Virus record (IMG/VR): IMGVR_UViG_3300049043_000106
Reading direction: 5' to 3' (one strand)
Length of the DNA stretch: 64,000 nt
From: an uncultured virus (IMG/VR IMGVR_UViG_3300049043_000106)
Lineage: Duplodnaviria; Heunggongvirae; Uroviricota; Caudoviricetes
Shown here: positions 1-51,747 of the stretch, in pieces
Layout of the letters: every line of letters starts with the position of its first letter
Numbering within the stretch: the first letter of the stretch is position 1
Made by a program: the position numbers and the translations under genes
Notes under the pieces: generated by a model
What the model was told of the DNA's origin: nothing
The model's input: only the letters and a program-made list of their open reading frames with translations
The model's database searches: none

Positions 1-31
1 ACTACCCGTTGAGGTTGGTATTGCTCATAAG

Positions 32-3631: not shown

Positions 3632-4273
3632 TACTTGATGGCTACTTCTCACTCCTATCATCCCCTTCTTGTGGCTACATTGTGGACCTCACCGGGAAGC
3701 TAGGCACCCGTGAGGAGGATCTCGAATCCCTCTTTTGGCTATGAGACTCTAGGGTTTTATCCGTTGGCTTCGAAACCCCTTCCATTGGATCGGGCTCGTC
3801 GAGAGCATGCGATTTGACCCCCTATTTGTCTCAAGGGGATTCCTAGATCATGAGATACCCTCCTTTGAGGCTAAGGGATCTCTCTTGTGGAAATCTAGCT
3901 CGACGGGTCATCGCCGCGACGTCGCGACGAAGGTACCATGTCGACGACCAAGGACTCCTTGTATGAGCGACCTAGAGGGGGCAATATCTAGGTTGTCATG
4001 ATTACATGTGAGGATACAATGCTACACTACATAAGGACTAAGGCTTGTGGCTTTTGGGACTTCTTGGTTAGCTTGATCTTGGATCTAAGTCTCTCGGAGA
4101 CTTCCTTACAAACGGTGCTTATGAGCTCCCCCTTTGCTTACTTGAGAGCGTGAAGCCATTGTAAGATTGTAAGAGTGGTCATAACTCAATTGAGGCTATC
4201 GGCTATGAGGCTTGTGTGAGGCTTTTGGAACTATATGTTGAGTGTACCGCAACCAAGTGTGGGACGCCTAACA
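3632..4273 (+). repeat. 5' LTR of A' (first 13 nt missing)
   Basis: Matches 10528-11170; ends ...GCCTAACA; followed by TATTTGGCGGGGTCAAC (PBS-like). Confidence 0.93.
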
Positions 4274-10514: not shown

Positions 10515-11170
10515 TGTTACACGTGGCTACTTGATGGCTACTTCTCACTCCTATCATCCCCTTCTTGTGGCTACATTGTGGACCTCACCGGGAAGCTAGG
10601 CACCCGTGAGGAGGATCTCGAATCCCTCTTTTGGCTATGAGACTCTAGGGTTTAATCCGTTGGCTTCGAAACCCCTTCCATTGGATCGGGCTCGTCGAGA
10701 GCATGCGATTTGACCCCCTATTTGTCTCAAGGGGATTCCTAGATCATGAGATACCCTCCTTTGAGGCTAAGGGATCTCTCTGTGGAAATCTAGCTCGACG
10801 GGTCATCGCCGCGACGTCGCGACGAAGGTACCATGTCGACGACCAAGGACTCCTTGTATGAGCGACCTAGAGGGGGCAATATCTAGGTTGTCATGATTAC
10901 ATGTGAGGTGACAATGCTACACTACATAAGGACCAAGGCTTGTGGCTTTTGGGACTTCTTGGCTTAGCTTGATCTTGGATCTAAGTCTCTCGGAGACTTC
11001 CCTTACAAACGGTGCTTATGAGCTCCCCCTTTGCTTACTTGAGAGCGTGAAGCCATTGTAAGATTGTAAGAGTGGTCATAACTCAATTGAGGCTATCGGC
11101 TATGAGGCTTGTGTGAGGCTTTTGGAACTATATGTTGAGTGTACCGCAACCAAGTGTGGGACGCCTAACA
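10515..11170 (+). repeat. 3' LTR of A'
   Basis: TGTTA...TAACA termini; direct repeat of 3632-4273. Confidence 0.95.
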
Positions 11171-11510
11171 TCTGCGCGTCAGCCAACAACGCCAAGGTGC
11201 CCCGGTTCTTCACTAGAGCAAACTCTTGTCTTGCCCATGACTTGAGTGGTGAAACCATTTGGTGTGTCACCTCACCCTGGAAGCTCATTTGGCCCCGTCC
11301 TAGAGCATTATTGAAGTGTAAGGCTCTAGCTCAGAGACCACATCTCCGGTGTTTGTGTTACCTGGATCTGGTGCGGCTGGGTTGACAAGGTTGCTGGTAT
11401 GCACCTTGTTCGCTCATACCCAACTTTAATTCCAGTTGTTCCATTGACTCAGAGGGTAATCGCTACTCTATTGGCCCCACCCCTAGCCAGTCAATGTGTA
11501 CTTGGACCCT
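11171..11510 (+). pseudogene. Degenerate Dam-like DNA amino-methyltransferase domain of element C
   Basis: ASANNAKVPRFFTRANSCLAHDLSGETIWC..PWKLI, then after frame changes PVLEHY..KCKALA..VFVLP..GMHLVRSYP..PVNVYLDP. Collinear with the domains in E and D; catalytic tetrapeptide not intact. Confidence 0.65.
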
Positions 11511-11772
11511 CGCGAGGGACACCCGGTTAGTCAAGCCAACCCTTGGATGCATCCCCAGCAAAGACCCTGGGATAATCAGAAACCTAAGGTCCTTAGAGAT
11601 GGCTCGTAAATGCCATGCTCTGGTGGAAGAGGACTTGGAGTGGAAGGTCCCCACAGATCACCCCATAGCTCGGTCTATTCAGCTATGCATGGCAAGTGTC
11701 TCGCGCAAAACTCTGTGTGGTGTTCCCCCCTACGTTCTGTAATGGGAGGTTGATGGATTTCCTGCCCGCCTA

Positions 11773-21530: not shown

Positions 21531-24500
21531 CTAAATGCTGCACAAATCATTTTTGAGTTGTGTATGTTAAGTGTGTTAGAATTTGGCACACTGCATACTA
21601 TGTGTTAATACATTTCTCAGCCATGTGTTCTTTGTTTTACACATAGAGCATCTGTGTTCATACACCCTATTGTATGAGTGCATTTATATATGTGTGTATG
21701 TATGACTGCACATACATGAGAGGGTATATGTGTGTGGTCTGGATGCATACACATGTGTGGTATATACTTATGTATGGCTTGCATTTATGTTGAATAAGTG
21801 TGGCATACCCATATTTAGCATATGATATTGTATTGGCCATTACTTACACTCTTTGTTTGTGAGTGTATGGCTGATATACGGACTCTCACGAACTGGGCCT
21901 GCAGGATGCATGGCGGGTATGGGTCTGGTGGATAGCGTTTGGACCAAGCTTCAAAGACCCTGCCTGGACTAGCCGTGATGCTGTGTGGAGTGGAGTGTGG
22001 ATCCCAGTACAGTGAGTGATTGGGATACACATAGAGGATGTTTGGATTGATATTACATTTGCACATAGGTTGCAAACATCCACACATCCTTGTCTATGGT
22101 ATTTTGTGACACCTTGCAGTTGTGCATTTTATGACACTGCAGGAGTAGTCTTGCATACCTGAGTGGTTGTGGCTGTGCCCAGGGCAGCCATGATCCAGTT
22201 GTGCTTGTGCCCCAGGGCAAGCCAACTGAGTCATGTATATATGACTCTTATCATTAGTGCATGCCGTCATTTCACTTCATTGTGTTATAGGATTTGCAGT
22301 GTTTATGCACCAATTGAGTATGCTATGAGTGAATGTGCCAAGTGGCCTTTCACCATTCATACCAATTGATTGTTTATGTATAATTGGGTACAATTTGTGT
22401 ATATGTGCTGATTGTAAGTGATAACTCACACGAGTTATCATTAAGCTTCGTCGGACTATACACAAAGTACCATATCTAGTTTGGGGAATTCAATCAGGAA
22501 ATGTATGGGCTATTGTGAGTGAATGAGCCCAGTGTTAGTCCACAGTGACAACACTCTGTGAACACACCACAACAAGTAGAGTTAACTTAGGGTAAACCCT
22601 AATTGACCTGCTTGATTGTACACCTCCAATTGGGTTCAAAGACCTGCTAGTTGATGTCACGTCTTGTGCATTTTCTGGGATAAGGGTAGAACCTGATTGC
22701 ACTCGTGGGTACATGTTTGCCCAACAAAGGTGTCGGATTAACCACCCTTAACGGCTGTGCCTTGTGGCTTTGCCGGGGTGTACAACCGACTGCCTTACCT
22801 GCTAGCAGTAGCCGTTCATACTTTTGAAAATTTTTCTTCCGGTGTACCCTCTTTTGGTACATCCAATGTAGTTGAAAAATTTAGCTCTCGGGGCAGGGTA
22901 GTTCTGATTTAGGACCCCTTGTGCCTCACCTCCTAGGCGTGCTAGGAAACGTTGGGTATGGATGTCGGTGACCCTATACCCTGAGATAACGCCAATAGGC
23001 TATAAGTCTGTAACCAGGACACAACGGTTCATGTTCACCGGCAATGGATGGTGAGGGCACTGATCCCCCTCACATCTAACCGGGCGAGTGACGAGAGAGT
23101 AGGAAGCCACCATAAACGTTGAGAGTAGGTGTGCTAGGTTGATGATTCAATAGGATGGGCCGTTGGATTAGGATATAAAGTGTTGAGAGAAACTTAGGTA
23201 TCCGTAGGCTTAGCATATGGTATGCATAAGCATGGGTACTGGTTTCTGGTTTCGGAAAGTAGTGTAAGCAGTTTGTAATCAAACTGTAACTCGGACACCG
23301 ATACCTTAGAATGGATAGCTCTGGATCTTATATAAGAGTCCAAAGAAGAGCATCCACCAGGTGGTGTATATGTCAAAATATATTTCAATTTCTGATTATA
23401 CCATACATGTTATGTATGAGTATAGGAGTAATCTTTCTTTTCTTGAGAGTATCTGTCACTTGACAAGATACTTGGTTCGTTGCTTTGCTTTCTTTGTCCT
23501 TTCCAGGAGCAAAGTAGAAACAACAAGGCTATGGGCAATAAAGGCCAGAGCTTGCTTATGTCTTGCATGTCTTGATGCTTGACCTCTGATGAGGTGCTTA
23601 CTTGAAGTGCCTATCTTATGTGTGAAAAAGAACGTACCCCAGAGATCTGTGAGATCTTGAAGTCTTGAACACAAGGGGCTATGAGTCCTAAGTGTTGTGT
23701 GTGAGGTCTAACCCTCTTGAGAAAGTAACACCCACAGAAGAATAAATGTATGGGATGTCAGTGAAGACATCAGGGTGTCCACGCATGAGGCATGGGTATC
23801 ATTTGGATATCCATAAATAATCAAAGACCCTATGTTTGGGTACAGTGGAAGCGTGGTGGGTCATGTAGACCCGAGTGTGATAAACTCTGTGTTTGTCCAC
23901 TATAACGTTGTATACCGGTTATGAAAGAGGTGTGATGATATTTACATCACCACTTACTCGTTGAGTAATGGTTGATATTACGATGTATACGTGATGATGA
24001 CTATGTATACTAAGAAAGAGTATGCATGTTGTCATTTCCTTTATAAGGTGTGTCGTTGAAAGACACAATTGATGATCATAATATGATGATCTTATTACAA
24101 CCTTCTTAAGGTCTGTATGTTTATGAGAGGCTCTTGAGGTCAGTCTTTATTGGTTACACCGTGTGTAAACCTCTGAGTTATATTGTCAAAGGTCTTACCT
24201 TAATGACCTTGGTATGGTCTTTTCAAGATCAGATGTGATGAGTCGTACCGTAGTCTTCAAACATGGATGTTTTGAGACTACCAGGTTACATTCAAAGTAT
24301 GATGAATTATGAGTACATATGAGTGAGACTTATGATTGAGGACATAAGGTCCACGGTATCATTTGTCTTGGTATGTCCCTTCCATTTGAGGGTACATGTC
24401 TGGTCATGAGTTATGACAAGTACGTCGTTTTATACGTGAAGTATAAACGAGTGAAGACATGGTGTGTCTTTTGGTGTCTCTGTGAAGCACCACTATGATA

Positions 24501-26429: not shown

Positions 26430-26885
26430 AAACGTGTGTTGACATTTATAGAGGAAAGTCGAGTGGTAGACCTGGCCTGTTGGACCCACTCGCTAGCTGG
26501 AAAGCTATGAGAGCGATGATACAAATGTCAACTGTATGCCTTACAATCCGGTGTAGGACAGTACTCCTGGTTCAGGACTTGTTCGATTTCTCAGTGGTAC
26601 AGTTACATTCCTGCCTGTTACTAGGGGCTCTGCCTATTTGGTGGGGCGTAACTGAGCAAACTGGCACCTCCGTGAGGAGATGGAAAATCCAGGGGCTGTA
26701 CCATGTGGCCACAATCAAGGACTGGAAGGTAAAAACATAGTGGGTATGTATTTACCAGGATGGCGGTAGTACCCACTCCTTCGCAGTGCCTTGTAAGCCG
26801 CCGCGGTGGTGTTCAGACCGACATCACCTGGCATGAGCGCTGAGACGGTAGGGTTAACCTAGGCCCGTGTAGGTCTGGCATACTG
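26430..26885 (+). ncRNA. Conserved structured cis-RNA element in the 3' UTR (copy in B1)
   Basis: Homologous to 50140-50530 and 59280-59740, with compensatory stem changes and a GNRA tetraloop. Confidence 0.55.
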
Positions 26886-31214: not shown

Positions 31215-31819
31215 TGGAGGCCTGGCGAGGTGACTGTTAAGAATTTTGGCAGAGAAGCGTTACAAAAGACTGCCCAAAGAGCAACAACAGAACTCAAGTA
31301 GGTGTTGCAAAAGGCCCAGGTGGAGCCTCAGCAGAGCACCCACCCAACCGGCTCCTGGAGCCGGTGGGGCGCCGGTCCTCAGGAGGACCGGATGGACTTT
31401 GTGACCGGGAGGGAACGTTGGAACGACCTGACCGTTGGGACTTGAGTCCCACGGTGGTCTCCGACGACAGGGCACGTGTCGGTCACGTTGTGACCGCCAG
31501 GGCCCACTCAAGGGGGCTCGCTGCCCTTGACACTCGACAAAGACACACAAGGACAGGCATGCCCGGAAAACACTACGTGGAGCAAGACAACCCCTCTTCG
31601 GGGGCCTAGAGCCCCACGTGGGGTACAACACGCAATAGGGGGTCTGCCCAGGGCACGGGGCCGGACTACCCCTGGGACTCGACTGGAGGAACAGCACCAA
31701 CCGGGAGGCCCTGGGAGTACCCCCTCGCGGGCCCTAGCGCCGTGACAACTAACCACTGAGACAACGAAGAGTACACCCCGACACAACCCGTGGTCGGGGC
31801 CAGGGCACCCTGCGTGCCT
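31215..31819 (-). repeat. Partial LTR of B2
   Basis: Reverse complement aligns with LTR 61326-62068; ends CA 2 nt before the PBS. Confidence 0.8.
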
Positions 31820-32134
31820 GGCCATAGGGCTTTGACACCCCTTGTAGACCTCGAATAGGAGCCGTTTAGGACCGTTATGACCTCGTGGACCAGGGGTTTA
31901 GGGGCTTGGATAGGTTTGGAGTGCCCTTGGGAGCCCTTGGAGGGTAGTTGGACCCTTGGTTGGAGGGAAAGTGAGTAGTTGGCATGGGTAGTAGGTGTTT
32001 TGGCGCCCTTGAGTTGGTGGCAAGGGCATGGTGTCCCTTGTGTGTTTGTATATAGCTTGTGGGCGCGTTATTGCTTGGTTGTTGTAAGTTTGGAGTAAGG
32101 AGAGACGTTGTAAGGAGTAAGGAGCGAAGTAACA
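31820..32134 (+). repeat. 5' LTR of E (first 6 nt TGTTAC missing)
   Basis: Matches 40167-40476; ends GTAACA; TATATA at ~32049. Confidence 0.93.
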
Positions 32135-33413: not shown

Positions 33414-35000
33414 ATGGCTACCAAGACCTACAAGAGAGCTAGCACTTGGGCTGCTGAGGCTGAGCACGCTCAGGTTAGAGAATGAAGCCCTTCGAGCCCG
33501 TCTTTCCGGTCGTACGGCGCCTTCCGGGCCCGGGGAACCCTCTACTCGTGTTGTTGAGGGACCCACTGATGATGACCCTATGATTGTGGACCCAAGACCT
33601 GATGCTGGAGCTACTAGGGCTGCTGATAACCCTACCGACCCTACGGGTGATGACGGAGCCCCTCCGGGGACGGATAACCCCCATACGGAGCACCCCAGTG
33701 GAGACCGAGCAAGAGAGGGTCAAGCTCAGGGTCCTGTTGTGATTTTTGGGGTTGATATCAGTGCCTTGAGGGATGCTGGGATGTCTGAGCAAGATATTGT
33801 CCTTGTGTTGAGTACGAAGGCCGGGAAGAGGCTCCGAGAGTACCCTGAGCAGGATAGGGCAATGCTTGACCTGATGAAGAGTATTAGGTTCCCCAATTTG
33901 GAGAGTGTGCCCAGTGATGAGGACCTTGATCACTTCTTTGATCAGGTCTCTAGGTTTGTGAAGGCCAAGGGTGAAGTGGGTGTGATTGCCAGTGATGCAC
34001 ATGTGATTGATCTGGCTTTGAATCATGCTAAGGGCCTGTCCTACAACTGCATCAAGGGGTCACTTTGAAGCATGGTATGGCTGCCACTTGGAAGCATGTT
34101 GAGGAGGCACTGAGGTTGGCTTTTGGTGACAAGAATCCAGCTGCAACTAGGAGGGCCAAGTTGGCTAAGTTGTGGTGGAAGGAGGGCACTCTTGGGGAGC
34201 ATGTTATTCGTTTCCGGGATGTGCTGTATGCCTGTATGCAAGATGCTGAGCCACCCAGTTCTGCTTATGCATGTGACCACTTCAAGAGGTCCATTAGGGA
34301 CCACAAGGAGCTCAGTGCCATGCTTGAGAGGAGGCCTGATTGGACTGATTGGACGGACATTGAGGAGTTGCTCAACATGGCTACTATGGCCTTTGGGAAG
34401 TGGACCTTTGCCAAGGACAGTGGCAAGGCCAAGGAGGGAGGCAAGGGTCACCATATGGCTGGTGGTGGAGGACGCAAGAGAGCTAAGTTTGAGGGCTCTG
34501 GGCATGGCTTTGGGGGTGGTCATCATGGGTTTAATGGTGGTCATCAAGTGTTCTCTGTTGGCTCACATCATGGGTCAGATAGGAGCAGTGGTAGCCACTT
34601 TTCCGGTGATGGTTATCGTGGCAGAGGCCGAGGTTTCAGAGGTAGAGGATGGAGGGAGAGAGGTGGCTATGGGAGGGGAGGTGGCTTCAGAGATGGTGGC
34701 TTTGGTAGAGGTTCAAGAGGCAGAGGTAGGGGTGGTCAGTCATGGTCACATCAAGGTACCCAGGGGAATGCGTCTTTCCAGTCTGTGGTTGATCAGGTTA
34801 GGTCAGTGGCTGGGCCTTCTGCATCCCAGGACACTGGTGGTTTGAAGTTGATGTTGGGGCCCAAGGCTGAGCAGTGGTACAAGGCCAATGATAGGTGTTG
34901 GAAGTGTGGTAAGCCTGGGCACAGCAAGAAGGAGTGTAGGTCTAGGATGTACATGAAGGCAGCTGACTTGCCTGCTGACCAGGATGACTGTAACATGGTT
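33414..35000 (+). CDS. gag: Gag of element E (frameshifted)
   Basis: ATG at 33414; capsid-like region; RGG-rich tract; CCHC knuckle CWKCGKPGHSKKEC at 34896-34937. Confidence 0.85.
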
Positions 35001-35194
35001 CCCAGATATGAGGAGGTCCCTGGGGCTTTGGGTGAGCATGTAGTGGCTGATGTCCCTCCTCTTGACCCACCTTTACTTCACTCTGTCTCTGGGGTTGCCG
35101 TGTCTCCCACTGTAACTCATACACAGGCTGCACCTGTCCCTTTGTCTGTTGGGGAGTGTCTTAGACAACAGGTGCAGCAGGAGTCACCCAACCA

Positions 35195-35625
35195 AAATAG
35201 GAGAGTGAGACCTGATGTGTTGCTGAAGATCAGAGGGTTGGTACCTCATGAGTTCACACTTGAGGCATGCTCTGATGTTGAGGGAGCAAATGCTGTGTTA
35301 GGTGGTGTCACGCGGTGTAGCATACGTGATAGCTTCATGGGTATGGATCTCAGAGGTCACCACATTTGGATGAACCCTCCTTTCAGCAATAGCATCCCCT
35401 TCATCAAGCATTACATTGAGCAAAAGGCCAAGTGTGGTGCTATGTCTTGTGTTGTGATGTTGCCACAAGGGAGCAAGGGTGCTAGGTTGGTGCATGACTG
35501 GCAGAAGCTGGTTACCTTTCCAGTTGGTTCCTTTCTGTTTCAGTCACCTTCCAAGAAGGATCCCAGCAAGTTTGTGAACATGAAGGGTTGTCCTTTTGCT
35601 GTGGATGTGTGGTATGATCCTCCCA
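35195..35625 (+). CDS. Dam-like (N6-adenine/N4-cytosine) DNA methyltransferase domain in frame with Gag of element E
   Basis: HEFTLEACSDVEGANA (motif I-like), DSFMGMDLRGHHIWMNPPFS (motif IV, NPPF at 35373-35384), SCVVMLP. Same pattern as phage N6-adenine MTases (F.LD.CA...N...D.L...W....W.NPPY...V.L.P). Confidence 0.8.
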
Positions 35626-35699
35626 CTGCATCTCACTTGTGTCCTGTGGGGGATTGTGTGGAGAGCATACCTTCCTTTGTGTTCGGCGGAACCCTTGGT

Positions 35700-38600
35700 A
35701 CCTGCTCAAGCTCAGGTTGGTATCACTACCAAGAAGATCTTGTTGGACACTGGAGCTTCCACTTGCTTTGTGGACAAGAAGTGGCTGGAGAAGCACTTGC
35801 CACACAAGCTTAGGAGGCTCAGGAACATGCCTGGCCAAGTGGATCATGTGGTGTTGGCCAATGGCACACAGCAGCCTGTCTTAGGTTGGATACGATTGGC
35901 GTTGCGCATCGGTGAGTACCGTGGGAGTGTCCAATGTCTTGTGACTGATCTTGGTCAGTATGAGCTGATCTTGGGGGACAAGTGGTTGCAAGAGCACAGA
36001 GCATACCTTGACTATGACACAAGGTCAGTGGTATTGAGGCATGGGAATAGGAGGATGACCATTAGGCCAGAGAGTGATGTACCAGTGAGGCAGAATTCTG
36101 GAGGGCAAGGAGACTTGAAGCTTGTGTCTTACTTGCAGTGCAAGAGGGCCTTGAGGAAAGGTTGCACTCTCTCAGTGATCATGGTTAGGCCTTTGGGAGC
36201 TCAGGTGCATCTCAACTCTGTCACCATTCAGTCTCGAGTCAGATGTCCGGAAGTTCTTGCATGACATGGGGACAAGGAGCTCACAGACCTGTGCAGTGAG
36301 TTCTACCATAGGTTTCCACCTCCACCTGGGTATGAGGCTACTGATAGGCCTTTCTTTGTGGACCATACCATCCCCACACCTGGTAACCCTAGGCCAAGGT
36401 ACAAGTACACCAGTAGGTTGACACCTAGGGAGAGGGAGGAGCTCGAGAAGCAGCTCAAGGAGCTGCTGGCTAAGGGGTTGATAGAGCCATCCACATCACC
36501 ATTTGGGGCACCTGTCTTGTTTGTTAGGAAGAAGGATGGGAGCCTTAGGTTGTGCATTGACTATAGGGCTCTCAATGCCATCACTTCTAGGAACCCTTAC
36601 CCCTTGCCTAGGATTGATGAGCTGATTGACAAGCTGAGTCATGCCAAGTACTTCACGAGTCTTGATCTGGCTACCGGGTATCACCAGAATTAGGATCAAG
36701 CAAGGAGGATGTTCCCAAGACTGCATTTAGCACTCCTTTTGGTCACTTTCAGTGGAAGGTTCTCATTGAAGGACTAACCAATGCCCCAGCCACTTTCCAA
36801 GCTCTGATGGACAGGATCTTTACCGGAGACTTCAAGGAGTTCATGTGTGTGTACATTGATGATCTGCTGATTTTTAGCAAGACCAGAGAGGAGCACCTTG
36901 CCCACTTGAGGAGGGTGTTTGAGAGGCTCACTGAGGCCAAGCTCTATGTGAAGTTGCCCAAGTGTGAGTTCATGAGGAGTGAGGTAAAGTTCTTGGGGCA
37001 TGTGGTGTTCTGCTAAGGGTGTGAAGCCTGACCCTGCCAAGGTGCAAGTGATAGAGGAATGGAAGACACCTGGTAGTGTGAGTGAGGTCCAGAGTTTCTT
37101 GGGCCTTGGGCAATACTTCAAGAGGTATATCAAGGGGTACTCAGGGATTGTGTGGCCCTTGACTGATCTCACAAGGAAGGGGCATGAGTGGGAGTGGACT
37201 GAGAAGTGTCAGATTGCCTTTGATGCACTCAAGAAGGCACTGGTGTCTGCTCCTGTGTTGGCCATCTATGATCCCACCAAGGAGACTGAGGTTGTGGTGG
37301 ATGCAAGCAAGAAGGCTCTAGGTGCTGTGTTACTGCAAGATGGGCACCCTGTGGCCTTTGAGAGTAGGAAGTTGCTGCCTGCGGAGACGAGGTATGACAC
37401 GGGTAACCGGGAGTTGCTTGCAGTTGTGCATGCACTCATGACATGGAGGCATTACTTAGAGGGTGTGCCTTTCAAGCTCATCACTGATCATGAACCCAAC
37501 ACATTCTTCAAGAGCATCTCTCCATGGAATGATAGGCAAGCTAGGTGGTACCAGAAGATGGCAAGGTTCACCTTTACCTGGGTGTATAGGAAGGGTGTTC
37601 TGAATTGTGCTGACCCACTCAGGTAGGATTCCTGAGCTCATGGGGGATAGTGGGGTGCAAGACACACATGTATCTTTGCATGTCATGACCAGAGCACAAG
37701 CTAGGAGGCAAAGGGAGGTGGTGGACCCTGATGATCAGGTCATGCCATCTGTTGATCCTGCTGACACCATTCCTGAGTTTGTTCCCGGTGATCGCGTTCC
37801 CGATGACATGGATGATGAGGTGCAAGAGTTGGCTGATGAGGCTCAGCCTTTGGAGGAGCTTTGGGAGGTCTCAAACCTATCAAGGGCTAGGCTTGTGGCT
37901 GCCTATGTTGGCCCTGAGTGGACCAAGGAGTTGGAGGAAAATCAGGTTAAGTTCGAGCGGGGTACCGGTGTGAATTCTGACTTGTGGTACTACAATGGTA
38001 GGATCGTGGTACCGAGTCATGCAAAGCACAAGGTGCTGAGGCAATTGATCATCAGAGAGCACCATGACACACCTCTTGCTGGTCATCAAGGAGTGGCTAG
38101 GACAAAGGAGTCCATCAGTAGGTTGTTCTGGTGGAAGGGGTTGCATCAGGAGGTGTGCAAGTATGTGCATGGGTGTAGGCAATGCGCAGTGAGCAAGCAC
38201 AGTAGACAGAAGCCCTTTGGTTTGCTTCAACCACTGCCACCACCTAAGTATTGTTGGGAGGAGGTCACTATGGACTTTGTCACTGGTCTTCCCACCACTT
38301 TGGAGGGGGAGGATACCATTGTTACCTTTGTGGATAGGTTCAGCAAAATGGTGCACTTCATTCCTTGTACAACAAAGGGGTTAGACACCATCAAGTTGGC
38401 TGGCATCTTCATGAGGGAAGTGTTCAAGCATCATGGTTTGCCAAGCAAGATCTACAGTGATAGGGACCCCAAGATGAACAACATATGGTGGAGAGAAGTC
38501 ATGGCTAGGTTGGGCACAAGGTTGGGTTTCAGCACTGCATTCCATCCCATGACTGATGGGCAGACTGAGGTGTTCAATAGGTCATTGGAGGAGGTGCTTA

Positions 38601-39373
38601 GGTGCTTCATCACACCTGATATGACCAATTGGTCTTCACTCTTGCCTTGTGTGGAGTTTGCTCTCAATAGCCATAGGCATGAGGTGACAAGGGAGACACC
38701 ATTCTTCCTTAACTATGGGAGGCACCCAGCTAGGCCTGTGGATCTAACCTTTCAGTCTTTGCACAAGCTGGACAAGAACTCTAAGGATGCTCAGGCACAA
38801 GCTGCTGAGTGGCACAAGGCCATCAAGAGGACTCAGGAGTTGCTAGAGGCTAATGCCTCAAGGATGAGCCAGAGGGAGAACCTCAAGAGGAAGGACCACC
38901 CATTCAAGGAAGGTGACATGGTGTGGCTGAGTTCTAGGAACTTTACTTGGAAGCATGGAGCTAGGAAGTTGTGTCCAAAGTACATGGGGCCTTTCAAGTT
39001 GCTGAGGGCAGTAGGTCCTGTTGCCTTTGCTGTGGAGTTGCCTGCTGAGTGGAAGATCCACAATGTGTTCCATGTCTCTCTGTTCAAGCCTGTCAGTGAG
39101 CACTTGAGGTACAAGTACCCCAAGCCTGTCAAGGTTGTGAGTGGCATTCCAGAGTGGGAGGTCAAGCAGATTTTGAGGCACAGAGATGTTGGGAGAGGGC
39201 TCAAGGAGTACCTTGTTGCTTGGACTGGTTTTGGTCCTGAGTTTGACAGCTGGCTGAGAGAGGAGCAGCTGGAAGGCAGCCCTGTGTTGCTGTCTGAGTA
39301 TCATCATGCCAAGAGGCTCAACCCTCAGTGGGGTCAGAGTGCTGAGGATGTGGAGGATGTGAGAGACCCCTGA
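35700..39373 (+). CDS. pol: Pol of element E (PR, RT, RNase H, integrase, chromodomain), split by a few indels
   Basis: [80 protein letters not shown]. Confidence 0.95.
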
Positions 39374-40160: not shown

Positions 40161-40481
40161 TGTTACGGCCATAGGGCTTTGACACCCCTTGTAGACCTCG
40201 TTTAGGAGCCGTTTAGGACCGTTATGACCTCGTGGACCAGGGGTTTAGGGGCTTGGATAGGTTTGGAGTGCCCTTGGGAGCCCTTGGAGGGTAGTTGGAC
40301 CCTTGGTTGGAGGGAAAGTGAGATAGTTGGCAGGTGGTAGTAGGTGTTTTGGCGCCCTTGAGATCTTGGTGGCAAGGGCATGGTGTCCCTTGTGTGTTTG
40401 TATATAGCTTGTGGGCGCGCTAAGTTGCTTGGTTGTTGTAAGTTTGGAGTAAGGAGAGGCTTGTAAGGAGTAAGGAAGACA
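40161..40481 (+). repeat. 3' LTR of E (terminus altered or clipped)
   Basis: Starts TGTTACGGCC after the PPT; match to the 5' LTR stops at ~40476. Confidence 0.93.
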
Positions 40482-40888: not shown

Positions 40889-41443
40889 CACCGTCCTCCA
40901 ACGCCTAAACTCCCCGTTGTGTTAAGCCGTGGGACTCCGTGTGAGGAGCCACGTGCTTCGTGTGTACAAGGGCTCTAGGCCCAGGGCACTAGGTCCCCTT
41001 GTTTTATCCAAAACCCCAGTGTTACTCAGAACCCTTCGGAGTGACCCCCAGAAGGGGCTAGGGCCGTGGGACCCGGCCGTTATCTCTGTATCGAGTCCCT
41101 CGGGTCTTGACGTCGACCCGTGTGGGCCGTGTCAGGGGCCCTCGGTGGGTTGTCACGTCGGTTCAAGGGGCCCTGGCCCCCAGGGTGTCCCCTTCGGACC
41201 GGTGGGACCTTTCACCGGTTTGGTTTGAAAGCCCTCACGGTCCCCTTGGACCGGCGGCGGCCGCCGTCGCCCGGGAAGCTGCCCTCTGGGCGGGCATAAC
41301 CGGCGTCTAGGCTTCGAATTCACGTTTGGTCTGCTAAGGCACGACAGCGGGCGAAGCTGTCGGCGCCGGCCTTCAGCAACTGTTGTAAGGGTGTCAGTAA
41401 GCGCCATTGACAGATGCCACTGAGCCAGGTAGCCCCCCACGAG
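40889..41443 (+). repeat. 5' LTR of D (first ~9 nt missing; 3' boundary approximate)
   Basis: Clear match to 51162-51603 up to 41313, weak beyond; CTTGGTTTCGG PBS-like at ~41444. Confidence 0.7.
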
Positions 41444-43976
41444 CTTGGTTTCGGTCACGTGGTTTACGTATCCAGGGCGCCCTACTCGTATCCAACTAGA
41501 CCGCGTGTCCATGTTTAAGCCCGTCACGAGCTTTCCGTAGTGCCCCTCCTGCTTAAACGAATGGCAGATGAATGGTGCCATTCATGGCCATTCATGAGGG
41601 GGCACTGAGCCCCCCCTCTAGTTTCACTAGTTATTGGTGGTGTGGGCCGACGCTACTGGCGTAGGTTTTGCTTAGTACGTCGTGTTACTAATTAGCCGCG
41701 GGCCGGTCCGTGCACCAGCCGGTTCTGGCGTGTCCACCACCGTGTCCATTGCTCGGGGCCTTACCAGCTTGTAGGCGCCAGGGCAACGCCTGAGTGTGGA
41801 CGTGCTGAGTAGGTGCAAAGCCGGCACCAGGTGTTATTAGCAGGGCTCTCGTCTAGGACCCGTTGTGCTTAAGGCGGCCCTCTTGGCGACGCCTCTCGCG
41901 CGCGGCTGTCCAAATCCCGGTTCCGCGCCATCGGCGGCGGTGGCCTTATGGAAGGACCATACTGTCAGCTCTGTGTGGCAGTGGCGTGTCCAGGTAGCAC
42001 CGAGACTGTGGTCAAGTGGTGCTCAGAAGCACCGTGTGAGGTTCAGCTTGTTAGCGACAGTGGCCTGACAACAGGTTCGAGTCAGCCGACCTGAGAATTG
42101 CCATGAGTTCGGTCGGCATTGGGTACGCCGCGTGTCCTTCTAGGAAGGCAGCAGTCAGGCTAACCTTGTGCGACGTTTAAGCTATTGCAACCAGTCGTGA
42201 TGTTGCTCGGCTATCTGATGCTGATTGTGGTGGCGCTGTCAAGCGCCCCACACGGGTTGAACTTAACACTTGTGCTGGCGTGGAAGCCCTAGCAGGCAGG
42301 TAGCTACCCCGATAAGGTAGGGTGGTCACATACTCAGTCAAGTTACCCAAGCTATCGACTCAGCTTCTTAGGTCAGATTGCAGCTTCCCAGGTCGAACCC
42401 CCACGACCTGAAGGTAAGGATTTTGACCAAGCTGAGCCGTTTGCCTGCCTGTGCGAACGCCGCACTTGAGGGGGAACCCTCTTCGGACCAAGCGCGGAGA
42501 CCGGTTCCACTCTCGTGCCGGCTGCCGACCTGGCGGTAGGACACTACAAGAGGTTCTTGTAAGTGTCGGAGGGATGAGGTGCTATTCTATGCCCTTAAGC
42601 GAGGGTAGTAAGTGCGGGGATCAATTAGAAGAGATAATTGATGTCATCCGCAATTAGATCATTTGCAATCATTGCAATTCATAACCTGAATTTTGGTATT
42701 TTCGCGGCTTCGGCCCTTGCAGTTGTGCATGAAATTGGCACTGCAGGGCAGCCATGCATTCCTGAGTGGTCTTGGCTGTGCCCAGGGCAGCCTTGATCCT
42801 TGTTGTGCTCGTGCCCCAGGGCGAGCCGAGCAAAACCCCGAACCTTCTATGGGTTCTCATAGTGCATGCCGTCATTTCACATCATTGTGAAATAGGTATT
42901 GCTGTGATTTTGCACCAATTGTTTATGTTATGGCTGATTGTGCCCTGTGGCCTATCACCATACATTGCAATTGATTGTTTATGAATATTTGGGTACTGAT
43001 TGTATGACAGATCTGATTGAAGTGGTAACTCACTATCGAGTTATCGTTAAGCTTCGTCGGACTGGATACAAGTACCACTATAGTTTTGAGCACACAAGTG
43101 ATTGTATGGGCTAAACGTGAGACTTTTCAGCCCACTAATTAGTCCACTATGATCACTTGGGGAGTAAGTAGGAAAAACATAAAAATTCCTCCTTACTGGC
43201 CCACTACCCTTCGGGATCAAAAACCTGCCCACTTAATGTCACGAACCTCGTGCATTTTTGGGATAAGGGTAGAACCTGATTTGTGCATACGTGGGTACAT
43301 GTTTGCCCAAACCAGGTGTCGGATGAACTCTCAATAGGCCAGTGCCAAGTGGCCAGGCCCTGGGAGGTAATATCCGTCTGTACTGCCTCGAGAGCAGCCG
43401 TATAAAATTTTTCTTTCTTTCGGTGTACCCTCTATTGGTACACCCACTGTAGTTGAAAATAGAACTCTCGGGGCAGGGTAGGTTTTGAGTAGGACTCTCT
43501 ACCCCTGTCTATGCGTTTTCTCACTACTAGGTGACCGTTGTGCTAGGATACGTTGGGTATCGGATGTCGGTGATCCTATAACCCAAGAAAAGCCAATAGG
43601 CTATATTGTAACCAGGACACAACGGATTCACATTCACCGGCAATGGGTGAACGAGGAATGGGCCCCTCGGAATCCTAACCGGGCGAGAGACGTGAGAGTT
43701 AGGACAACTTCGCTAAATTTTGAGAGTAGGATGTGTTAGTTTCTTTCCTCAATAGGAACTTGTGTTTAAAATAGGTACCTTGTTGAGAGACTTCTAGGAA
43801 CTCCTTAGGAACTCCCTAGGAATCGCATGAGGTATGCATCTTGCATGGGTTATAGGGGTTAGGTATAACCTCTCTGTAATTAGGTCAAGATCATACCCAA
43901 CCTCCACTGAGTAGGTACCCGTCTTGAGTCCCTAAACTGAGTCCGTCGTTTTGTCTTACTCTCATGAAGGCATAAG

Positions 43977-45841
43977 ATGTCTAGACGAGCTAGGTTAAGC
44001 TCTATGAGGTTAGGAGACACTGTGTCCCCAGCTCAGCCTGGTTGTATCCGCACCGGTTACTACTCAGGCAGTCGATGATTCTTCCTTGAGTCAGGAGAAC
44101 AGGACCGATCCACAGGGAATTAGTCCTGATGAAACTAGTGGGGACCTTGCCACCTTAGTCTCTTCCTTGAAGGAGCAGAATCCAGTCTGGGTTCAAGTCC
44201 CTGAGTGATAGGCTTGACACCATTGAGGAACAGCATCACGAGTTACAGGGTGCTGTGTCCTATATAGACAAGTATTTGTCTGGTCAAGTGGATGATGAGG
44301 AGGAACCCATGGATGGGGTTGAAGAGGAGGTCAATCCAAGCATGCCACCTTTGGTAGATGAGCATGGTATTGCATGCATGGCTCCTGATGTCAAGGCATG
44401 CTGATGTCTGGTCCTTCCCTCCTTCCCATCTCCAGTCGTGAAGTCCCACATGCATCTGGGCCATCAGTCAGTGAGTTCTATACCACTAAGGCTGGTGAGA
44501 GGGCACGAGTTACTACCGAGTGTCCTCCTTTCAATCTCTCTTCTGAGATGCTTCCCTTCGGTATTATCAGGCATCCGCCTCCTGCGAGCACGGCTCCTGC
44601 GAGCACGGCTCCTCCCTCAACCATTTTCCTTGATGGTGCTGAGGACTTGGGTACTGTAGATGCAGCTGTACCAGCGAATCCAGTGCTTGCGGCTATCTCC
44701 ACGTTGGGGAAGTCGATCGTGAGTGCTATCCGACCTCACTCAGATTCTGGGGTTCTCAAGCACATCAGAATGCCGACACTTTCTGAGTTACCCAGACGAG
44801 CAACTGGAGAAGTACTTTGAAGATGTAGAGCGGTATATCGCGGCTCACAAGCCGTCTACTCAGCAGTTGCATATCACGTTGCTTATTGCACTGAAAAATG
44901 ACATCTACATCTTCGCCAAGGGTATAGTTGACCGTTATGCTGCTAGGTATGATGGTAATCTGTGTCCTTGGGGTGTGATTAAGCAGGCCTTTATCATTCA
45001 GTACCAGTCAAAGAATCCCAGGGAAGTAGTCGTGAAAAAGCTACTTAACCTGACCTGGACTGAGGGTAGGCTTGCAGATCATATTAATAGGTTTACGCAT
45101 CTGCTGAACATTCTGGAGAAGCATGATCCCATGGCTGAACCAAATTACATCAGGATTTTCATTCGCAGTCTTAGGAATCACCCTGATGTGCAGAAGAAAC
45201 TTGAGCTCACTCCCATGTATGAGCAGTGGAAGACATTGGGTGCATTACTGGACACTGCACATAACTTGGGTACTAAGGAGATTGAGAAGAAACATGGTGG
45301 TGAACCTCCTGCTAAGAAGCAGAAACTTGAGCATTCCTGGCAGAAGGATAATAAGGATAGGCCTCAGTGGAAACCACGTGGTGGATACCGGGGTCGTGGT
45401 TTTCGTGGTCGTGGTAGGGGTTCTTATCGTGGTGGTCATTTTGATCGGGATAGGTTTACCCCTCGCAATGACAATCCCAGTGGTGGTAATAACCAATCAA
45501 GGGGTGGTCAGAATTTCAGAGGTGGTCGGGGTGGTAATCAGGCTCCACAGGGGCGTAAAGTTGCCATCCTCTCTGATGCAGCAAGACAGATTTACACTAC
45601 CAAGAAGCTGTGTTTTAGGTGTGGTAAATCTGGGCATGAGAGTAGGGACTGCCGGGTTGATGTGGCTTTGGCCAATGAGGTCAAGAACATGCCTGGTTGT
45701 AAAGTAGCTTGGCAGTATGTTGAGGTCCCTATTGAAGATGTACCTGAAACATCTACACCTCTTGTGCATGATCTTCAAGTTACTAATAATAGTACTTGTG
45801 AGATGGCTGTTCAAACTGATGACTACTCCTGTGTTTCCTAA
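43977..45841 (+). pseudogene. gag: Gag of element D (frameshifted)
   Basis: Capsid-like region similar to E Gag (LTWTEGRLADHINRF vs LWWKEGTLGEHVIRF), RGG tract, CFRCGKSGHESRDC knuckle. Confidence 0.88.
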
Positions 45842-45924
45842 AGTAAAAAGGATTAGAGTATAAGACCAAAGTAGGTCATACTCAAGCAAGAAGCTATATG
45901 AAAAGGTAAATAGGTTAAATCAGG

Positions 45925-46365
45925 ATAGGAAAGTTCGACCTCAGGTTATGGCTGAAATTCAAAAGTTAATTCAGAGAAGTTTACTTTTGAAGCATGTACT
46001 AATATTAGTGGTACTAATTGTGTCCTTCCTGGTTTACCTAGGGCACACTCTGCAGATAGTTTCTTTGAAAAAGATCTAGCAGGACATTGTGTATGGATGA
46101 ACCCACCATTTGCTGATCCTGAAAGGTTTGTGGAGTACTATAATTTACAGAAGTTAAAGTCTCCACATAACACCAGTTGTGTTTTCATAATACCAACTAG
46201 ACAGAGAGGTCAGTTGAATAGGTATCTACAGGGTTGGAAACTAATTAAAGACCTATGCACCATTGACCGAACTCTTTGAAAGACCTAAAGATGATCTTTG
46301 CTTAGAGTATGAGGCTATGCCTCCCTTTGCATATGGTGTAGAGGTATGGTATGATGCACCTGTGC
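45925..46365 (+). CDS. Dam-like DNA methyltransferase domain of element D (frameshifted)
   Basis: RKVRPQVMAEIQKLI..EKFTFEACTNISGTNC..DSFFEKDLAGHCVWMNPPF (NPPF at 46100-46111)..TSCVFIIP..GVEVWYDAP. Confidence 0.8.
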
Positions 46366-46399
46366 ATAACCCCCATGTATGGGCTGTATCAGACTTCCT

Positions 46400-49300
46400 T
46401 GATAATAATAAACCCCGTTTTGTTGTCAAGGGTACTGTTGGTCTTAGTAAAGCGGATGTTCCAGTCGCAGAGGGTAATATACTCTTTGACACAGGAGCAA
46501 CTAGTTGTTTTGTAGATTCCTTCTGGTTGTCCTCTTGGAAACCTGACTATAAAAAGAAATTAAAGCACTGTGACCAGTCTTTACAGTTGGCTAATGGTAC
46601 TAAGCAGCAGATTGAGGGTTTGATTAGGTTAGGTATTAAGTTGGGGAACTATGCTGGGTCTGTACTGTGTTATGTTGTAGATCTAAGGAGTTACAATGTC
46701 ATCCTTGGGATAACGGTTAAAGGAAAAGAGGTCTTTCATTGACTACACTACTGAGACCATTGTAATTCACCAAGGTAAAAAGCGATACACGATCAATCCT
46801 AATCGCATACTTCAGCCACAAGATGCTACACAGCGAACCACTCCGGGTAAAACTGGTGTGTCTATGCTGTCTGCCTTGCAAGCTTAAGCGTGCTATGAGG
46901 AAGGGTTGTGAAGTCACTGTGATATTAGTTTTCCTGAAGATCCACAACTTAATGCAGCTAAAATGTCACGGGAGGATGTCATTGATGCTATTAACCAGAT
47001 GGATAGAGAAAGACTTGATGCATATCTGTCAGAATGTTATTGACATCTTTAGAGATCCTCCTGGGTATGCATGTACCGAACGTGACATTAATGTACCGCA
47101 CACTATACCTTTGCCACATGGGCATGTACCTCCATATGGTCCTAGGTATAGGCATACTCCGATAGAACGTGAAGAACTTGAGAGACAGGTTACAGAGGGT
47201 ATTTCTAAGGGTATTATTGAACCTAGTTCAGCACCCTATGGGTCCCCTGTAATCTTTGTAAAGAAAAAGGACGGCTCTCTCAGAATGTGCATTGACTATC
47301 GGGCACTCAATAGGATAACCATAAAGAATAGGTATCCTTTGCCTAGGATAGATGACCTACTTGACCAAGTTAGTAAGGCAAAGTATTTCACCTCACTTGA
47401 CTTGGCTAGTGGTTATCACCAAATTAGGATTCGTCCAGAGGATGTACCTAAAACATCTTTTAGTACACCCTTCGGGCATTTCCAATGGAAGGTGTTAATT
47501 GAGGGTCTAACCAATGCACCTGCTACATTCCAGCATTTCATGAATGAGGTATTCAAAGACGAGATGCATAAGTTTGTGGCAGTATACTTAGATGACATTC
47601 TCATCTATAGTAATTCTGAAGAGGAGCATTATAAGCATGTTGAGCATGTTCTTAACAAGCTCAAGGCTAATAATCTCTTCCTCAGGTTTGACAAATGTTC
47701 ATTCTTTAAGAGGGAGGTTAAATACCTTGGTCACATCATTGATGAGCATGGTATTAGGCCAGATCCTGATAAAGTTAGGGGCGGTACAGGATTGGCCTCC
47801 ACCTAAAAATGTACCAGAACTGAGGTCTTTTCTGGGGTTAACTAACTACTTTAGGAAGTTTATAAGGGGTTACAGTCAGTACACGTTCCCCTTAACTCAG
47901 TTCCTGAAAAAGAGTACTACGTGGGCATGGCTTCCGCCTTGTCAAACGGCATTTGAGTTCTTAAAGAAAGCTTTAATCACTGCACCTGTTCTTACACATT
48001 ATGATCCTGAGGGTAACCTTGAAGTCATCTGCGATGCCTCCAAAGTCGCTCTTGGTGCTATCTTAATGTGTAACGACAAGCCGAGTCGCATACGAGAGTC
48101 GTAAACTATCTCCAAGCCGAAATGCGATATGACATCGGGATCAGGGAACTACCTTGCAGTAGTTCATGCCTTGAAAGTCTGGAGACCGTATCTTGATGGT
48201 GCGTGCTTCAAGCTTGTCACGGATCATGAACCTAATACGTACTTGAAGAACATTGCTAATTAGGACTGATAGACAAGCTCGATGGAACCAGAGGATAGAG
48301 AGATTCTCCTATTCCTGGGTCTATCGTAAAGGGGTTGATAATATTGCTGATCCCTTGAGTCAGGATGCCGGAGTGTAATGCGATCACACGGCTTATGCTT
48401 AAAAGAAGTTCTTTACCTGACAGGATGAGGACTTGGTAGGTCCTACACCTATTCCTGCATCTGGGTTACCCAAACCTAAGAAAGCAGATATATAAGAAAC
48501 CTGCAACTTCCATCAAGACCTCCAGATTTTAGGAAGGCATATTCTAATCCTGCATGGGCTGATGAGAAAAGGATACCACATATAAAAAGGGTCATAACGA
48601 CTATTGGTATCATGGGGACAAGGTAGTAGTCCCTTCTCATTCAGCATGTAAAGACCTTAGGGAGTCTCTAATATCTGAGCATCATGATACTCCTTTGTCG
48701 GGTCACCAAGGTCTTAGGAGAACTTTGAAATCTCTAGGTAGGACGTTTCACTGGAAGGGTATGTACGCAGAAGTAAAGCAGTACATTGACGGGTGTTATG
48801 AGTGTGACATCAGTAAAAGTTCCACTCAGAGACCCACAGGTCTATTGGATCCCTTACCAGTACCTCCTGCACCTTGGGAATGGATGAGCATGGATTTTTG
48901 TACCGGTTTCCCATGTACAGTAGATGGTTATGACTCCATCATTGTCTTCGTAGACATGTTGACCAAGTTGGTGCATATCAGACCTTGTACTAAGAAAGGT
49001 CTTGATGCATTCAAAGTTGCTACACTCTTTGAAGAAGAGGTTATTAAGCATCACGGGGTTCCGCGTCACATTGTTAGTGACAGGGACTCAGTACTTACTA
49101 GTAATGCATGGAAAGAACTGGTTAAACGTCTTAACAGTAAGTGTAACTACAGTACTGCTTATCATCCTCAGACTGATGGGCAAGACTGAGAGATTCAATA
49201 GGAGTATTGAGGAATACCTTCGTTGCTTCATTGCTCCTGACATGTTGAACTGGTCGTCTTTACTTCCTTACGCAGAGTTCGCTCTGAACGACCATGTTCA

Positions 49301-49923
49301 CGCTGGTACCCAACACACTCCTTTCTTTTTGACTTATGGGTATCATCCGACGAAACCGATCGACCTTGCACTTGGTTTGGCACCTGAGTCTAAGGATGCT
49401 AAACTCAGAGCTGACGAGTTGCACAAGGCACTCGAGCTCGCTCAAAAACTTTTGTCTGACTATAAGAGTCGCATGAAGCAACGGGCTGACAAAGCTCGTA
49501 AGGACTGGACCTTTGTGCCAAATGATAAGGTGTACTTGTCAAGTAGAAACTTCTCTTTCAAGTACGGTACTAGAAAGCTTTTACCCCGGTGGCTTGGTCC
49601 CTATCTAGTGGAGGGAGCTGTGGGCAAGGTGTCCTATAAGTTAAAACTCCAAGACGGATGGAAGATCCATCCAGTTTTCCATGCAAGTTTACTCAAGCCT
49701 GTATTCGATCATACCAGGTACAAGATCCCTGAACCCACACGTACTGATGCTGACGGCATCCCTCGAGTGGGAGATCACTCATGTGTTAGACCACAGGGGT
49801 CAAGACGAAGGGCGTACTGAGTACCTCGTAGCATGGAAGGGCTTCGGGCCAGAGTGCCTACGATCGGCGGCCGAGAAGATCGAGCTGCCAGGCTCGCACT
49901 ATACTGCGCAAGTACTGGAGTAA
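46400..49923 (+). pseudogene. pol: Pol of element D (PR, RT, RNase H, integrase, chromodomain), frameshifted
   Basis: [64 protein letters not shown]. Confidence 0.93.
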
Positions 49924-50139: not shown

Positions 50140-50530
50140 TCGTTGACATTCAGAGTGGAAAGTCGAGTGTTAGACCTGGCCTGGTTGGACACACTCGCTA
50201 GCTGGAAAGCTATGAGAGCGATGATACGAATGTCAACTGTGTACCTGGTAATCCTATGTAGTACAACGTTCAATTGTACGAGTACTCAGCGGTATAGCTA
50301 CTATTCCTGCCTGCTGACGAGGGCTCTGTTCGTATTGATGGGGCGTAGTTGAGCAAACTGGCACCACCGTGAGGTGATGGATAATCCAGAGGCTATACCA
50401 TGTGGCTACAATCAAAGGACTGTCATGATATGGCAGTGCCTTGTAAGCCGCCGCGATGATATTCGGACCGATGTCATTGGCATGAGCGCTGAGTGGGTAG
50501 GGTGAACCTCAACCCAGTGCTAGTCTGCGT
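50140..50530 (+). ncRNA. Conserved structured cis-RNA element in the 3' UTR (copy in D)
   Basis: Homologous to 26430-26885 and 59280-59740 with covarying stems. Confidence 0.55.
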
Positions 50531-51152: not shown

Positions 51153-51747
51153 TGTTAGCGACACCGTCCTCCAACGCCTAAACTCCCCCGCTCCTCTGTG
51201 AGTGGGCACGTGTGTCGTGTTAAGCCGTGGGACTCCGAGTGAGGGGCCACGTGCTTCGTGTGTACAAGGGCTCTAGGCCCAGGGGCACTAGGCTCCCTTG
51301 TTTATCCAAAACCGCAGGGCTCCTAGGACCCTTAGGAGTGACCCCAGAAGGGGCTAGGGCCGTGGGACCCGGCCGTTATCTCTTGAGAGTCCCTCGGGTC
51401 TTATGTTGACCCGTGTGGCCGTCGTCAGGGACCCACGGTGGGCTGTCTCGACGGTTCAAGGGGCCCTGGCCCCGGGTGTCCTCTTGGACCAGGATGGGAC
51501 CCTCTCACCGGCTCAGGTTTGACGCCGTCACGGTCCCCTTGGACCGGTGAGGGCCGTCGCCCGGGAGCTGCCCTCCGGCGGGCGGTAACCGGCGCTAGGC
51601 TTCTCCTTTGCCGCTTCTACTTAAGGTCCGGGTAGCTCTAGGGCACCGGCCTTGATCAAATCCGAAGGTCACGACGCTTGCCGAGGCAGGCGCCACTCCT
51701 GACGCGGCCAGGAGCTCCCCACCAACGTGAATTTCAGCTCATTAACA
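51153..51747 (+). repeat. 3' LTR of D
   Basis: TGTTAG after the PPT; probable end ...CATTAACA. Confidence 0.8.

Follow-up and report, generated by a model that had tools for sequence, protein, structure and literature searches.

A Dam-like adenine methyltransferase domain between gag and protease in two sister families of Ty3/gypsy retrotransposons

LTR retrotransposons that carry an adenine methyltransferase domain (DAM-LTR retrotransposons) were described in May 2026 in a preprint by Fernandez-Moreno, de Mendoza and co-authors (bioRxiv 10.64898/2026.05.21.726589), which claims the first such domains in LTR elements outside the DIRS group. Five lineages are described there, two from green algae and one each from ichthyosporeans, Pyropia and Euglena. 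In Euglena and two ichthyosporeans, 6mA is reported there to be higher on DAM-LTR copies; eukaryotic DAMs that the authors expressed in dam-deficient E. coli produced no 6mA. The words "gag", "protease", "purifying" and "copia" do not occur in its main text, which neither states the order gag, DAM, protease nor mentions selection tests; the supplements may hold more.

The DIRS1-like retrotransposons, which use a tyrosine recombinase, have a methyltransferase (MT) domain of the same small Dam-like family. This domain was reportedly the subject of work by Goodwin and Poulter. It is treated in PMC5890265 and PMC4738411, and Iyer et al. 2016 describe the related DIRS1 domains as "likely inactive" and place them in the PCIF1 clade. 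Retrotransposons with a C5 cytosine methyltransferase have been described as well, namely SymbioLINE-DNMT, SymbioDIRS-DNMT3 and Gypsy-DNMT3 (de Mendoza et al. 2018, PMC5890265).

We analysed a stretch of 64,000 nucleotides, referred to here as the window, which is repeat-rich eukaryotic DNA. Rfam gave no match on the window and ARAGORN no tRNA, and the ORFs at 15.6–19.0, 20.9–21.5 and 39.3–39.9 kb match no Pfam family. A scan of all six frames of the window for [NDS]PP[FYW] returned two matches in a methyltransferase-like context, at 35373 and 46100, both on the plus strand. Each of them sits within a Ty3/gypsy element, and we refer to the families of these two elements as E and D, respectively.

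The E element spans 31.8–40.5 kb on the plus strand and is bounded by two LTRs of ~310 bp (31816–32123 and 40163–40476) that are ~96% identical. Its coding region (33414–39373, plus strand) includes an ORF at 34032–35813 in which gag (zinc knuckle at 34893–34940), a linker and the Dam-like domain are read in a single frame. The domain itself (35199–35627, RRVRP to VDVWYDPPT) is uninterrupted, with NPPF at 35373–35384, and the strings quoted for it in the first-pass annotation (RRVRP from 35199, NPPF and VDVWYD) all lie within this ORF. Protease, RT, RNase H, integrase and chromodomain follow 3' of the domain.

A search of 5.8 billion proteins returned an intact relative of E, P0002, which has 1984 aa and is 99% identical over the E domain. 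Pfam assigns to it RVT_1, two RNase H models, Integrase_H2C2, SH3_Tf2-1 and Chromo (residues 1913–1962). The coding region of the window's E copy is 92–100% identical to P0002 per piece (81% over the first 21 residues), and it is split into seven pieces in three frames with three stops; this copy is thus dead, as is that of D described below, although its domain is uninterrupted. The 90% cluster of P0002 has 40 members, and the 15 listed include at least eight distinct 1984-aa proteins that are 99–100% alike.

In D, an old Ty3/gypsy chromovirus, the Dam-like domain comprises ~143 residues at 45927–46365 on the plus strand, with the gag zinc knuckle on its 5' side and the protease on its 3' side. 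The first-pass annotation held that D keeps the same methyltransferase with an intact NPPF. All strings on which it relied are present: RKVRP at 45927–45941, EKFTFEAC from 45968, SCVFIIP, and VEVWYD at 46338–46355, and DLAGHCVWMNPPF includes NPPF at 46100–46111. The motif is intact, but the domain that surrounds it is broken over three frames, with switches near 45974 and near 46250. Piece a (RKVRPQVMAEIQKLIQ, RKVRP to KLIQ, 45927–45974), which was located by three-frame translation, lies in frame +1 relative to gag and aligns without gaps to RRVRPDVLLKIRGLVP of E. Piece b (EKFTFEAC through WMNPPF to GWKLIKD, 45968–46252) is in the gag frame, within an ORF at 45956–46279. Piece c (TYAPLTELF to VEVWYDAPV, 46251–46365) is in frame +1 and runs on into the protease, within an ORF at 46245–46742.

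The gag frame of D has a stop at 45839–45841 and five more ahead of the domain. Counted from the 3' end of gag through the whole domain, there are at least three frame disruptions plus several stops. Since the domain is spread over three frames and separated from gag by stops, this copy of D is dead, which agrees with the age of its candidate LTRs (86% alike). Programmed frameshifting was considered and ruled out, as both switches are inside the domain and the stops are upstream of it.

For an independent test of similarity, we used a family profile composed of E and 59 relatives, from which D was left out. The two main pieces of D, b and c, match this profile with E-values of 1.7e-27 and 1.1e-9, respectively, and the former value rules out a chance similarity. 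With the three frames of D taken together, 53 of 143 aligned residues are identical between the two elements. Applied to the six-frame translation of the window, the profile also picks up a third, degenerate Dam-like remnant at 11180–11430 on the plus strand (E-value 2.5e-4, with a second piece at 0.096). It lies upstream of a protease, RT and integrase at 11.8–15.4 kb and reads TSPW at the site of motif IV, so the motif has been lost.

The gag ORF of D (44723–45841) matches zf-CCHC and Retrotrans_gag in Pfam and has its zinc knuckle at ~45608–45655. Remnants of pol, in several frames, extend over 46400–49920 and were identified by tblastn with pieces of E and with P0002, together with a Pfam match for the protease. 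They comprise protease (46473–46712), RT (46766–47806), RNase H (to ~48393), integrase (48566–49820) and a chromodomain (49765–49854) with 60% identity to Chromo of P0002; all are on the plus strand. The Dam-like domain is situated ~600 bp upstream of the RT remnants. Candidate 5' and 3' LTRs of D, also on the plus strand, are found at 40889–41315 and 51162–51603 and are 86% identical.

By the features tested, D and E are members of the DAM-LTR retrotransposons. Both are Ty3/gypsy LTR elements of high copy number whose polyprotein includes a Dam domain of prokaryote- or phage-like type, and the RT belongs to the same element as the domain (one 1984-aa ORF in E, the short distance given above in D). 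They have LTR pairs and a DDE integrase, and P0002 has no Phage_integrase match. The Asn-Pro-Pro-aromatic catalytic motif takes the form NPPF in both, and a C-terminal chromodomain, as in chromoviruses, is found in P0002 and in D.

The differences from the other described systems are clear. EpiLTRs combine DAM, C5-DNMT and chromodomain, whereas P0002 has no DNA_methylase match (Pfam at E<=1e-5); D and E therefore are not EpiLTRs, as they lack a cytosine methyltransferase. They are not DIRS elements either, since they have no tyrosine recombinase and instead possess a DDE integrase and direct LTRs. The small Dam-like domain within a retroelement polyprotein is common to DIRS1-like elements and to D and E, but in the former it follows RT and RNase H, whereas in the latter it precedes the protease, in elements with LTRs and a chromodomain. 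SymbioLINE-DNMT, SymbioDIRS-DNMT3 and Gypsy-DNMT3 are likewise retroelements with a captured DNA-modifying enzyme that presumably shapes their own chromatin; however, that enzyme is of an unrelated class, modifies another base and has the opposite expected effect (5mC silencing).

The domain scores against Pfam PF05869 (DNA N-6-adenine-methyltransferase, Dam) with 23.0 bits in E (E-value 7e-5) and 15.9 bits in D (E-value 0.011). Both scores are under the gathering threshold of 28.1 bits, and we therefore name the domain "Dam-like" by homology and do not treat it as a direct Pfam member. When 1.84 billion cluster representatives (50% identity) were searched by phmmer with a 173-residue stretch of E, 326 relatives were returned at E<=1e-3, including 91 at <=1e-10. 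Among the best 149 of these 326, 74 reach the PF05869 gathering score, RVT_1 is found in 41 and Chromo in 16, and 27 more have only a retroviral-type protease after the domain. Five of the same 149 are Ty1/copia polyproteins, in which the domain occupies the same gag-to-protease position; a tyrosine recombinase was found in none of the 149 at the thresholds used. The position is also stable among the gypsy-type polyproteins examined: in 32 of 33, the domain is upstream of protease or RT, the exception being P0116 with a C-terminal domain.

Mapping D and E onto the family alignment reveals which residues are conserved. The NPPF of both elements aligns to the family's motif column (motif IV), where the best 149 of the 326 relatives have Asn in 135, the second Pro in 144 and the aromatic residue in 141 cases. 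The canonical NPP[FYW] is absent from 55 of the 149 representatives, 19 of which, for example, read NAPF; NPPF is kept in D, in E and in all five copia-type relatives. Three columns are near-invariant, G38 (145/147), N40 (144/147) and P98 (141/142). These are retained in D and E, as are the conserved columns F28, S54, F55, W66, N68, P70, Y81, K85 and D149.

We modelled the E domain with AlphaFold2 from a 60-row alignment (pLDDT 91.0, with residues 10–152 at ~97; pTM 0.83). In the model, the sheet is Rossmann-like and strand 4 is followed by the N/D-P-P-aromatic motif. Its best match among predicted viral structures is a small phage "DNA N-6-adenine-methyltransferase" (E-value 8.7e-8; TM 0.68 on the query and 0.61 on the 198-aa target), and this match spans most of the domain. 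The small phage Dam enzymes of PF05869 likewise have NPP[FY] after the fourth strand, but they are free-standing and only 13–19% identical in sequence. Some of them are active. Judged by the model, the domain is predicted to adopt a compact fold of class I SAM-dependent methyltransferases, of the type seen in small phage Dam enzymes, and it would cover whole proteins of that kind and not a fragment of one.

Among solved structures, the cap-specific mRNA adenosine-N6 methyltransferase PCIF1/CAPAM (PDB 6irv, 6irw and 6irx), which shares the NPPF catalytic motif, comes out on top with a Foldseek E-value of 3e-4 and, in VIA, a Z of 10.3 and an rmsd of 2.8 over 132 aligned residues. EcoDam (Z 9.9) and T4 Dam (Z 9.6) follow closely, and similar Z values are obtained for the RNA adenine methyltransferases Erm/KsgA; since less than 1 Z unit separates all of these, they count as a tie. 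A search of the PDB by sequence gave no methyltransferase above noise, PCIF1 being the sole one (E-value 0.93), and none with a tighter alignment.

Two trees indicate how D and E came by the domain. In the RT tree (40 rows) D and E are sisters (SH-aLRT 94), and in the domain tree (142 rows, 141 columns, IQ-TREE quick search) they fall into one six-row clade (SH-aLRT 97), in which E pairs with P0018, D with P0026 and P0029 with P0020. The order of zinc knuckle, domain and protease is identical in the two elements. Since D and E are sisters for RT and belong to one domain clade, the domain was already present in their common ancestor and was inherited, not captured twice.

The two families have nevertheless drifted far apart, in keeping with the earlier observation that their LTRs and base composition differ. 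An all-against-all blastn of the window shows no match between D and E LTRs, at third codon positions the E domain has a GC of 0.52 and the D domain one of 0.29, and the GC content of the window is 0.51–0.52 over E and 0.41–0.47 over D. For a profile-guided set of 143 D–E codons, Nei–Gojobori counting gives a pN of 0.438 and a pS of 0.728 (Fisher p=5e-7), and an uncorrected pN/pS ratio of 0.60 (bootstrap 0.48–0.75). Identity by codon position is 0.47/0.62/0.41 (random expectation ~0.26), and the third base is common to D and E in 7 of 20 conserved four-fold codons. Jukes–Cantor correction leads to dN ~0.66, dS ~2.6 and an omega of ~0.25 or lower, values that are unreliable with pS at its saturation limit; since synonymous sites are saturated, dN/dS proper is not measurable for this pair. 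The safe statement from the codon pattern is that the protein has been conserved while silent sites were randomised.

The degree of constraint can be judged by comparison with the rest of the polyprotein. D and E are 37% identical over the domain, 35% over gag, 44% over the protease region, 61% over RT, 52% over RNase H and 53% over integrase. A set of nine near-identical E-family proteins varies at 6 of 142 positions in the domain versus 3 of 850 in PR+RT+RH+INT (p=4.5e-4), and the domain does not differ in this respect from gag (11/510, p=0.23). All six variable sites lie outside the family-conserved columns. The constraint on the domain is thus real, weaker than that on RT and integrase, and comparable to that on gag and protease.

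The first-pass annotation had proposed long-term purifying selection on a functional domain as opposed to a one-off captured fragment, and inheritance, family size, codon pattern and retention of motif IV support this view. "Functional" is, however, established only in the sense of "selected". We regard it as highly probable that the domain is what its homology indicates, that it was inherited from the D/E ancestor and that it has been under purifying selection.

What the domain does is less certain. It may be catalytically active, and we rate this as slightly short of an even case. As a part of Gag-Pol, in which it would be translated, the domain should be packaged into the virus-like particle and then released by the protease. 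Within the particle it would use S-adenosylmethionine to place N6-methyl groups on adenines of the replication intermediates, either cDNA or the RNA:DNA hybrid, which is the model proposed in the preprint (10.64898/2026.05.21.726589). New insertions would then bear 6mA, which marks permissive chromatin where the host maintains this modification, and could recruit host AMT1 and so come to sit in permissive chromatin.

Alternatively, the domain may have been retained in a catalytically inactive form, serving Gag-Pol as a structural module or as one that binds nucleic acids, for instance by binding element RNA or by mimicking a factor of the host; a role of this kind was proposed for the DIRS1 domain by Iyer, Zhang and Aravind. 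This explanation would account for the negative E. coli assay of the preprint and for the "likely inactive" DIRS1 copies of Iyer et al. 2016. It also fits a domain whose rate of evolution equals that of gag and exceeds that of the pol enzymes, and a motif IV that is non-canonical in more than a third of the representatives (55/149). On the other hand, the best-kept residues are precisely those of motif IV (N, P and aromatic in 135, 144 and 141 of 149) and of the G38/N40 loop after the first strand, and it is difficult to account for their retention unless a cofactor is bound or a base flipped. The conservation of NPPF in D, E and the copia-type relatives, together with the higher 6mA reported on DAM-LTR insertions in three species (10.64898/2026.05.21.726589), also speaks for activity. 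We thus consider an inactive module rather unlikely.

If the domain is an active methyltransferase, its substrate might be RNA instead of DNA: a PCIF1/CAPAM-like enzyme could modify adenine-N6 on the element's transcript or genomic RNA, for example next to the cap. PCIF1 heads the matches to solved structures, and none of the other top VIA rows has so low an rmsd; it is also the only methyltransferase in the PDB sequence search, where it is not significant. Iyer et al. assign the DIRS1 domains to its clade, and the tie in Z between Erm/KsgA and the Dam enzymes is compatible with an RNA substrate. The VIA rows are, however, less than 1 Z apart and count as ties. Among predicted viral structures, the phage DNA Dam is ahead of the giant-virus PCIF1-like proteins, which come next (E-values of 8.7e-8 and ~3e-4, respectively), and Pfam assigns 74 of the 149 relatives to the DNA Dam family. 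Moreover, PCIF1 is a cellular enzyme of ~700 aa with WW and helical domains, whereas the domain of D and E has no WW match and lacks the PCIF1 helical domain. An RNA enzyme of this kind therefore seems improbable to us.

A separate acquisition of the domain by D and E, or a one-off captured fragment that decays neutrally, would agree with the many frameshifts in the D copy, but it can be dismissed as very improbable in view of the same zinc knuckle–domain–protease position, the sister relationship of the RTs (94), the single domain clade (97), a protein similarity that persists over randomised synonymous sites and the existence of intact 1984-aa E ORFs.

Returning to an active DNA methyltransferase, a more extended scenario is conceivable, though we would not expect it to hold in full and present it as a tentative conjecture. 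D and E would represent a DAM-chromovirus lineage from a host group outside the sampling of the preprint; the active domain would methylate the element's own cDNA or RNA:DNA hybrid in the particle so that insertions arrive marked with 6mA, and the module would have moved once into Ty1/copia. The host appears to be a cosmopolitan microbial eukaryote of soil and freshwater.

Retrotransposons with an adenine methyltransferase of their own suggest that mobile elements are able not only to evade silencing marks but also to put an activating one on themselves. D and E offer a natural comparison in this regard, as they are sister families in which synonymous sites are randomised and both the place of the domain and its catalytic motif are kept. 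Since many intact single-ORF copies are present in public data, the E family is good material for biochemistry. The claim has its limits in the gag-like evolutionary rate of the domain, in the many relatives with altered motifs and in an activity that is predicted only. Since the DAM-LTR phenomenon itself was described in the preprint of May 2026 (10.64898/2026.05.21.726589), the value of the present analysis is in confirmation and detail and not in discovery.

As to whether gag, methyltransferase and pol form one ORF, they do so in E, where the 1984-aa protein reads gag-DAM-PR-RT-RH-INT-chromo; for D, no intact relative was found in the collections searched. In metagenome contigs, 352 pattern matches with the D+E alignment and 336 with D alone included no confirmed intact D-family domain, and none of six pattern matches in viral contigs scanned with E was confirmed. 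A word-based search for D-family proteins of near length with D's 107-aa ORF gave no match.

Copies of D are nonetheless abundant. Parts of a 5.6-kb stretch of D occur in metagenomes of soil, freshwater, wastewater and aquaculture (20 runs, 11 studies), with no RNA run among those listed. In four runs, 211–657 contig pieces per run match it at 90–100% likeness, and D is thus multicopy and widespread. In none of these four runs do contigs cover 41528–42255. A metagenome contig of run X2 joins 51623 to 41346, and records of run X3 join 51600 to 41353 and 51628 to 41355 with letters in between; joins of this type are the LTR-to-internal junction as expected in other D copies. Two further joints, 45819 to 45906 and 45820 to 45899, were each seen in a single metagenome contig with short sides at 90% likeness. 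The D pieces from the four runs amount to 110 indel rows and 415 substitution rows. Among the 12 indel rows and 40 substitution rows listed, one change is situated in the Dam-like domain, 46207 A>G, which is found in all four runs and is synonymous by codon reading.

Some Ty1/copia polyproteins also carry the Dam-like domain, the methyltransferase-like module that families D and E of the window encode. Among the 149 best relatives of the domain, five are of this type (P0037, P0060, P0068, P0134 and P0138; none from the window), with Dam scores of 29–49 bits. Their domain order is Retrotran_gag_2, Dam, Pol_BBD protease, gag_pre-integrs and rve, followed in P0138 by RVT_2; placement of the Dam domain between gag and protease is common to the copia-type relatives and the gypsy-type elements. 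All five keep the NPPF motif. In the domain tree, the copia-type rows form one group (SH-aLRT 83) that is nested among gypsy-type rows. Our literature search found no report of copia-type Dam elements, and the word 'copia' does not occur in the main text of the preprint describing DAM-LTR retrotransposons (bioRxiv 10.64898/2026.05.21.726589).

Two other relatives have unusual architectures. In the gypsy-type protein P0116, which differs in this respect from the other 32 gypsy-type relatives, the Dam-like domain is C-terminal (residues 1224–1364 of 1369) and follows RT and RNase H. P0099 (518 aa) combines an N-terminal bacterial-type Peptidase_S13 (D-Ala-D-Ala carboxypeptidase) with a Dam-like piece at 433–513; the fusion probably stems from chimerism of the contig or of the gene call.

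We aligned the near-identical E-family polyproteins P0002, P0009 and P0011–P0017. Amino acid variation clusters in three parts of the polyprotein: 11 of 510 sites vary in gag, 6 of 142 in the Dam-like domain and 4 of 130 in the linker that separates RNase H from integrase. The RT, RNase H and integrase domains are nearly invariant, with 2 of 745 sites varying.

A third, degenerate Dam-like remnant lies on the plus strand at 11062–11527 (profile E-value 2.5e-4), with TSPW in the position of NPPF. It directly adjoins the end of an LTR-like repeat (10528–11171), with no gag between the two, and decayed protease, RT and integrase follow at 11.8–15.4 kb. The same 643-bp repeat occurs 6.9 kb upstream (3632–4274, 98.9% identity), and the stretch between the copies shows no pol similarity. 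The upstream copy is 3′ of a fourth chromovirus-like pol (2–3314), a single 884-aa open frame from protease to integrase that the window start truncates exactly at the protease, so that any Dam-like domain 5′ of it would fall outside the window.

Two pol-less repeat blocks, at 21–28 kb and 54–61 kb, repeat parts of D, namely stretches of its long leader (42715–43757) and 3′ region (50142–50422), at 73–83% identity, and may be non-autonomous relatives of D. The segments concerned, among them an inverted pair of 1.3 kb that is 85% alike, are 22112–23155, 26438–26724, 25522–27030/58415–59885 and 28944–30272/53919–55246.
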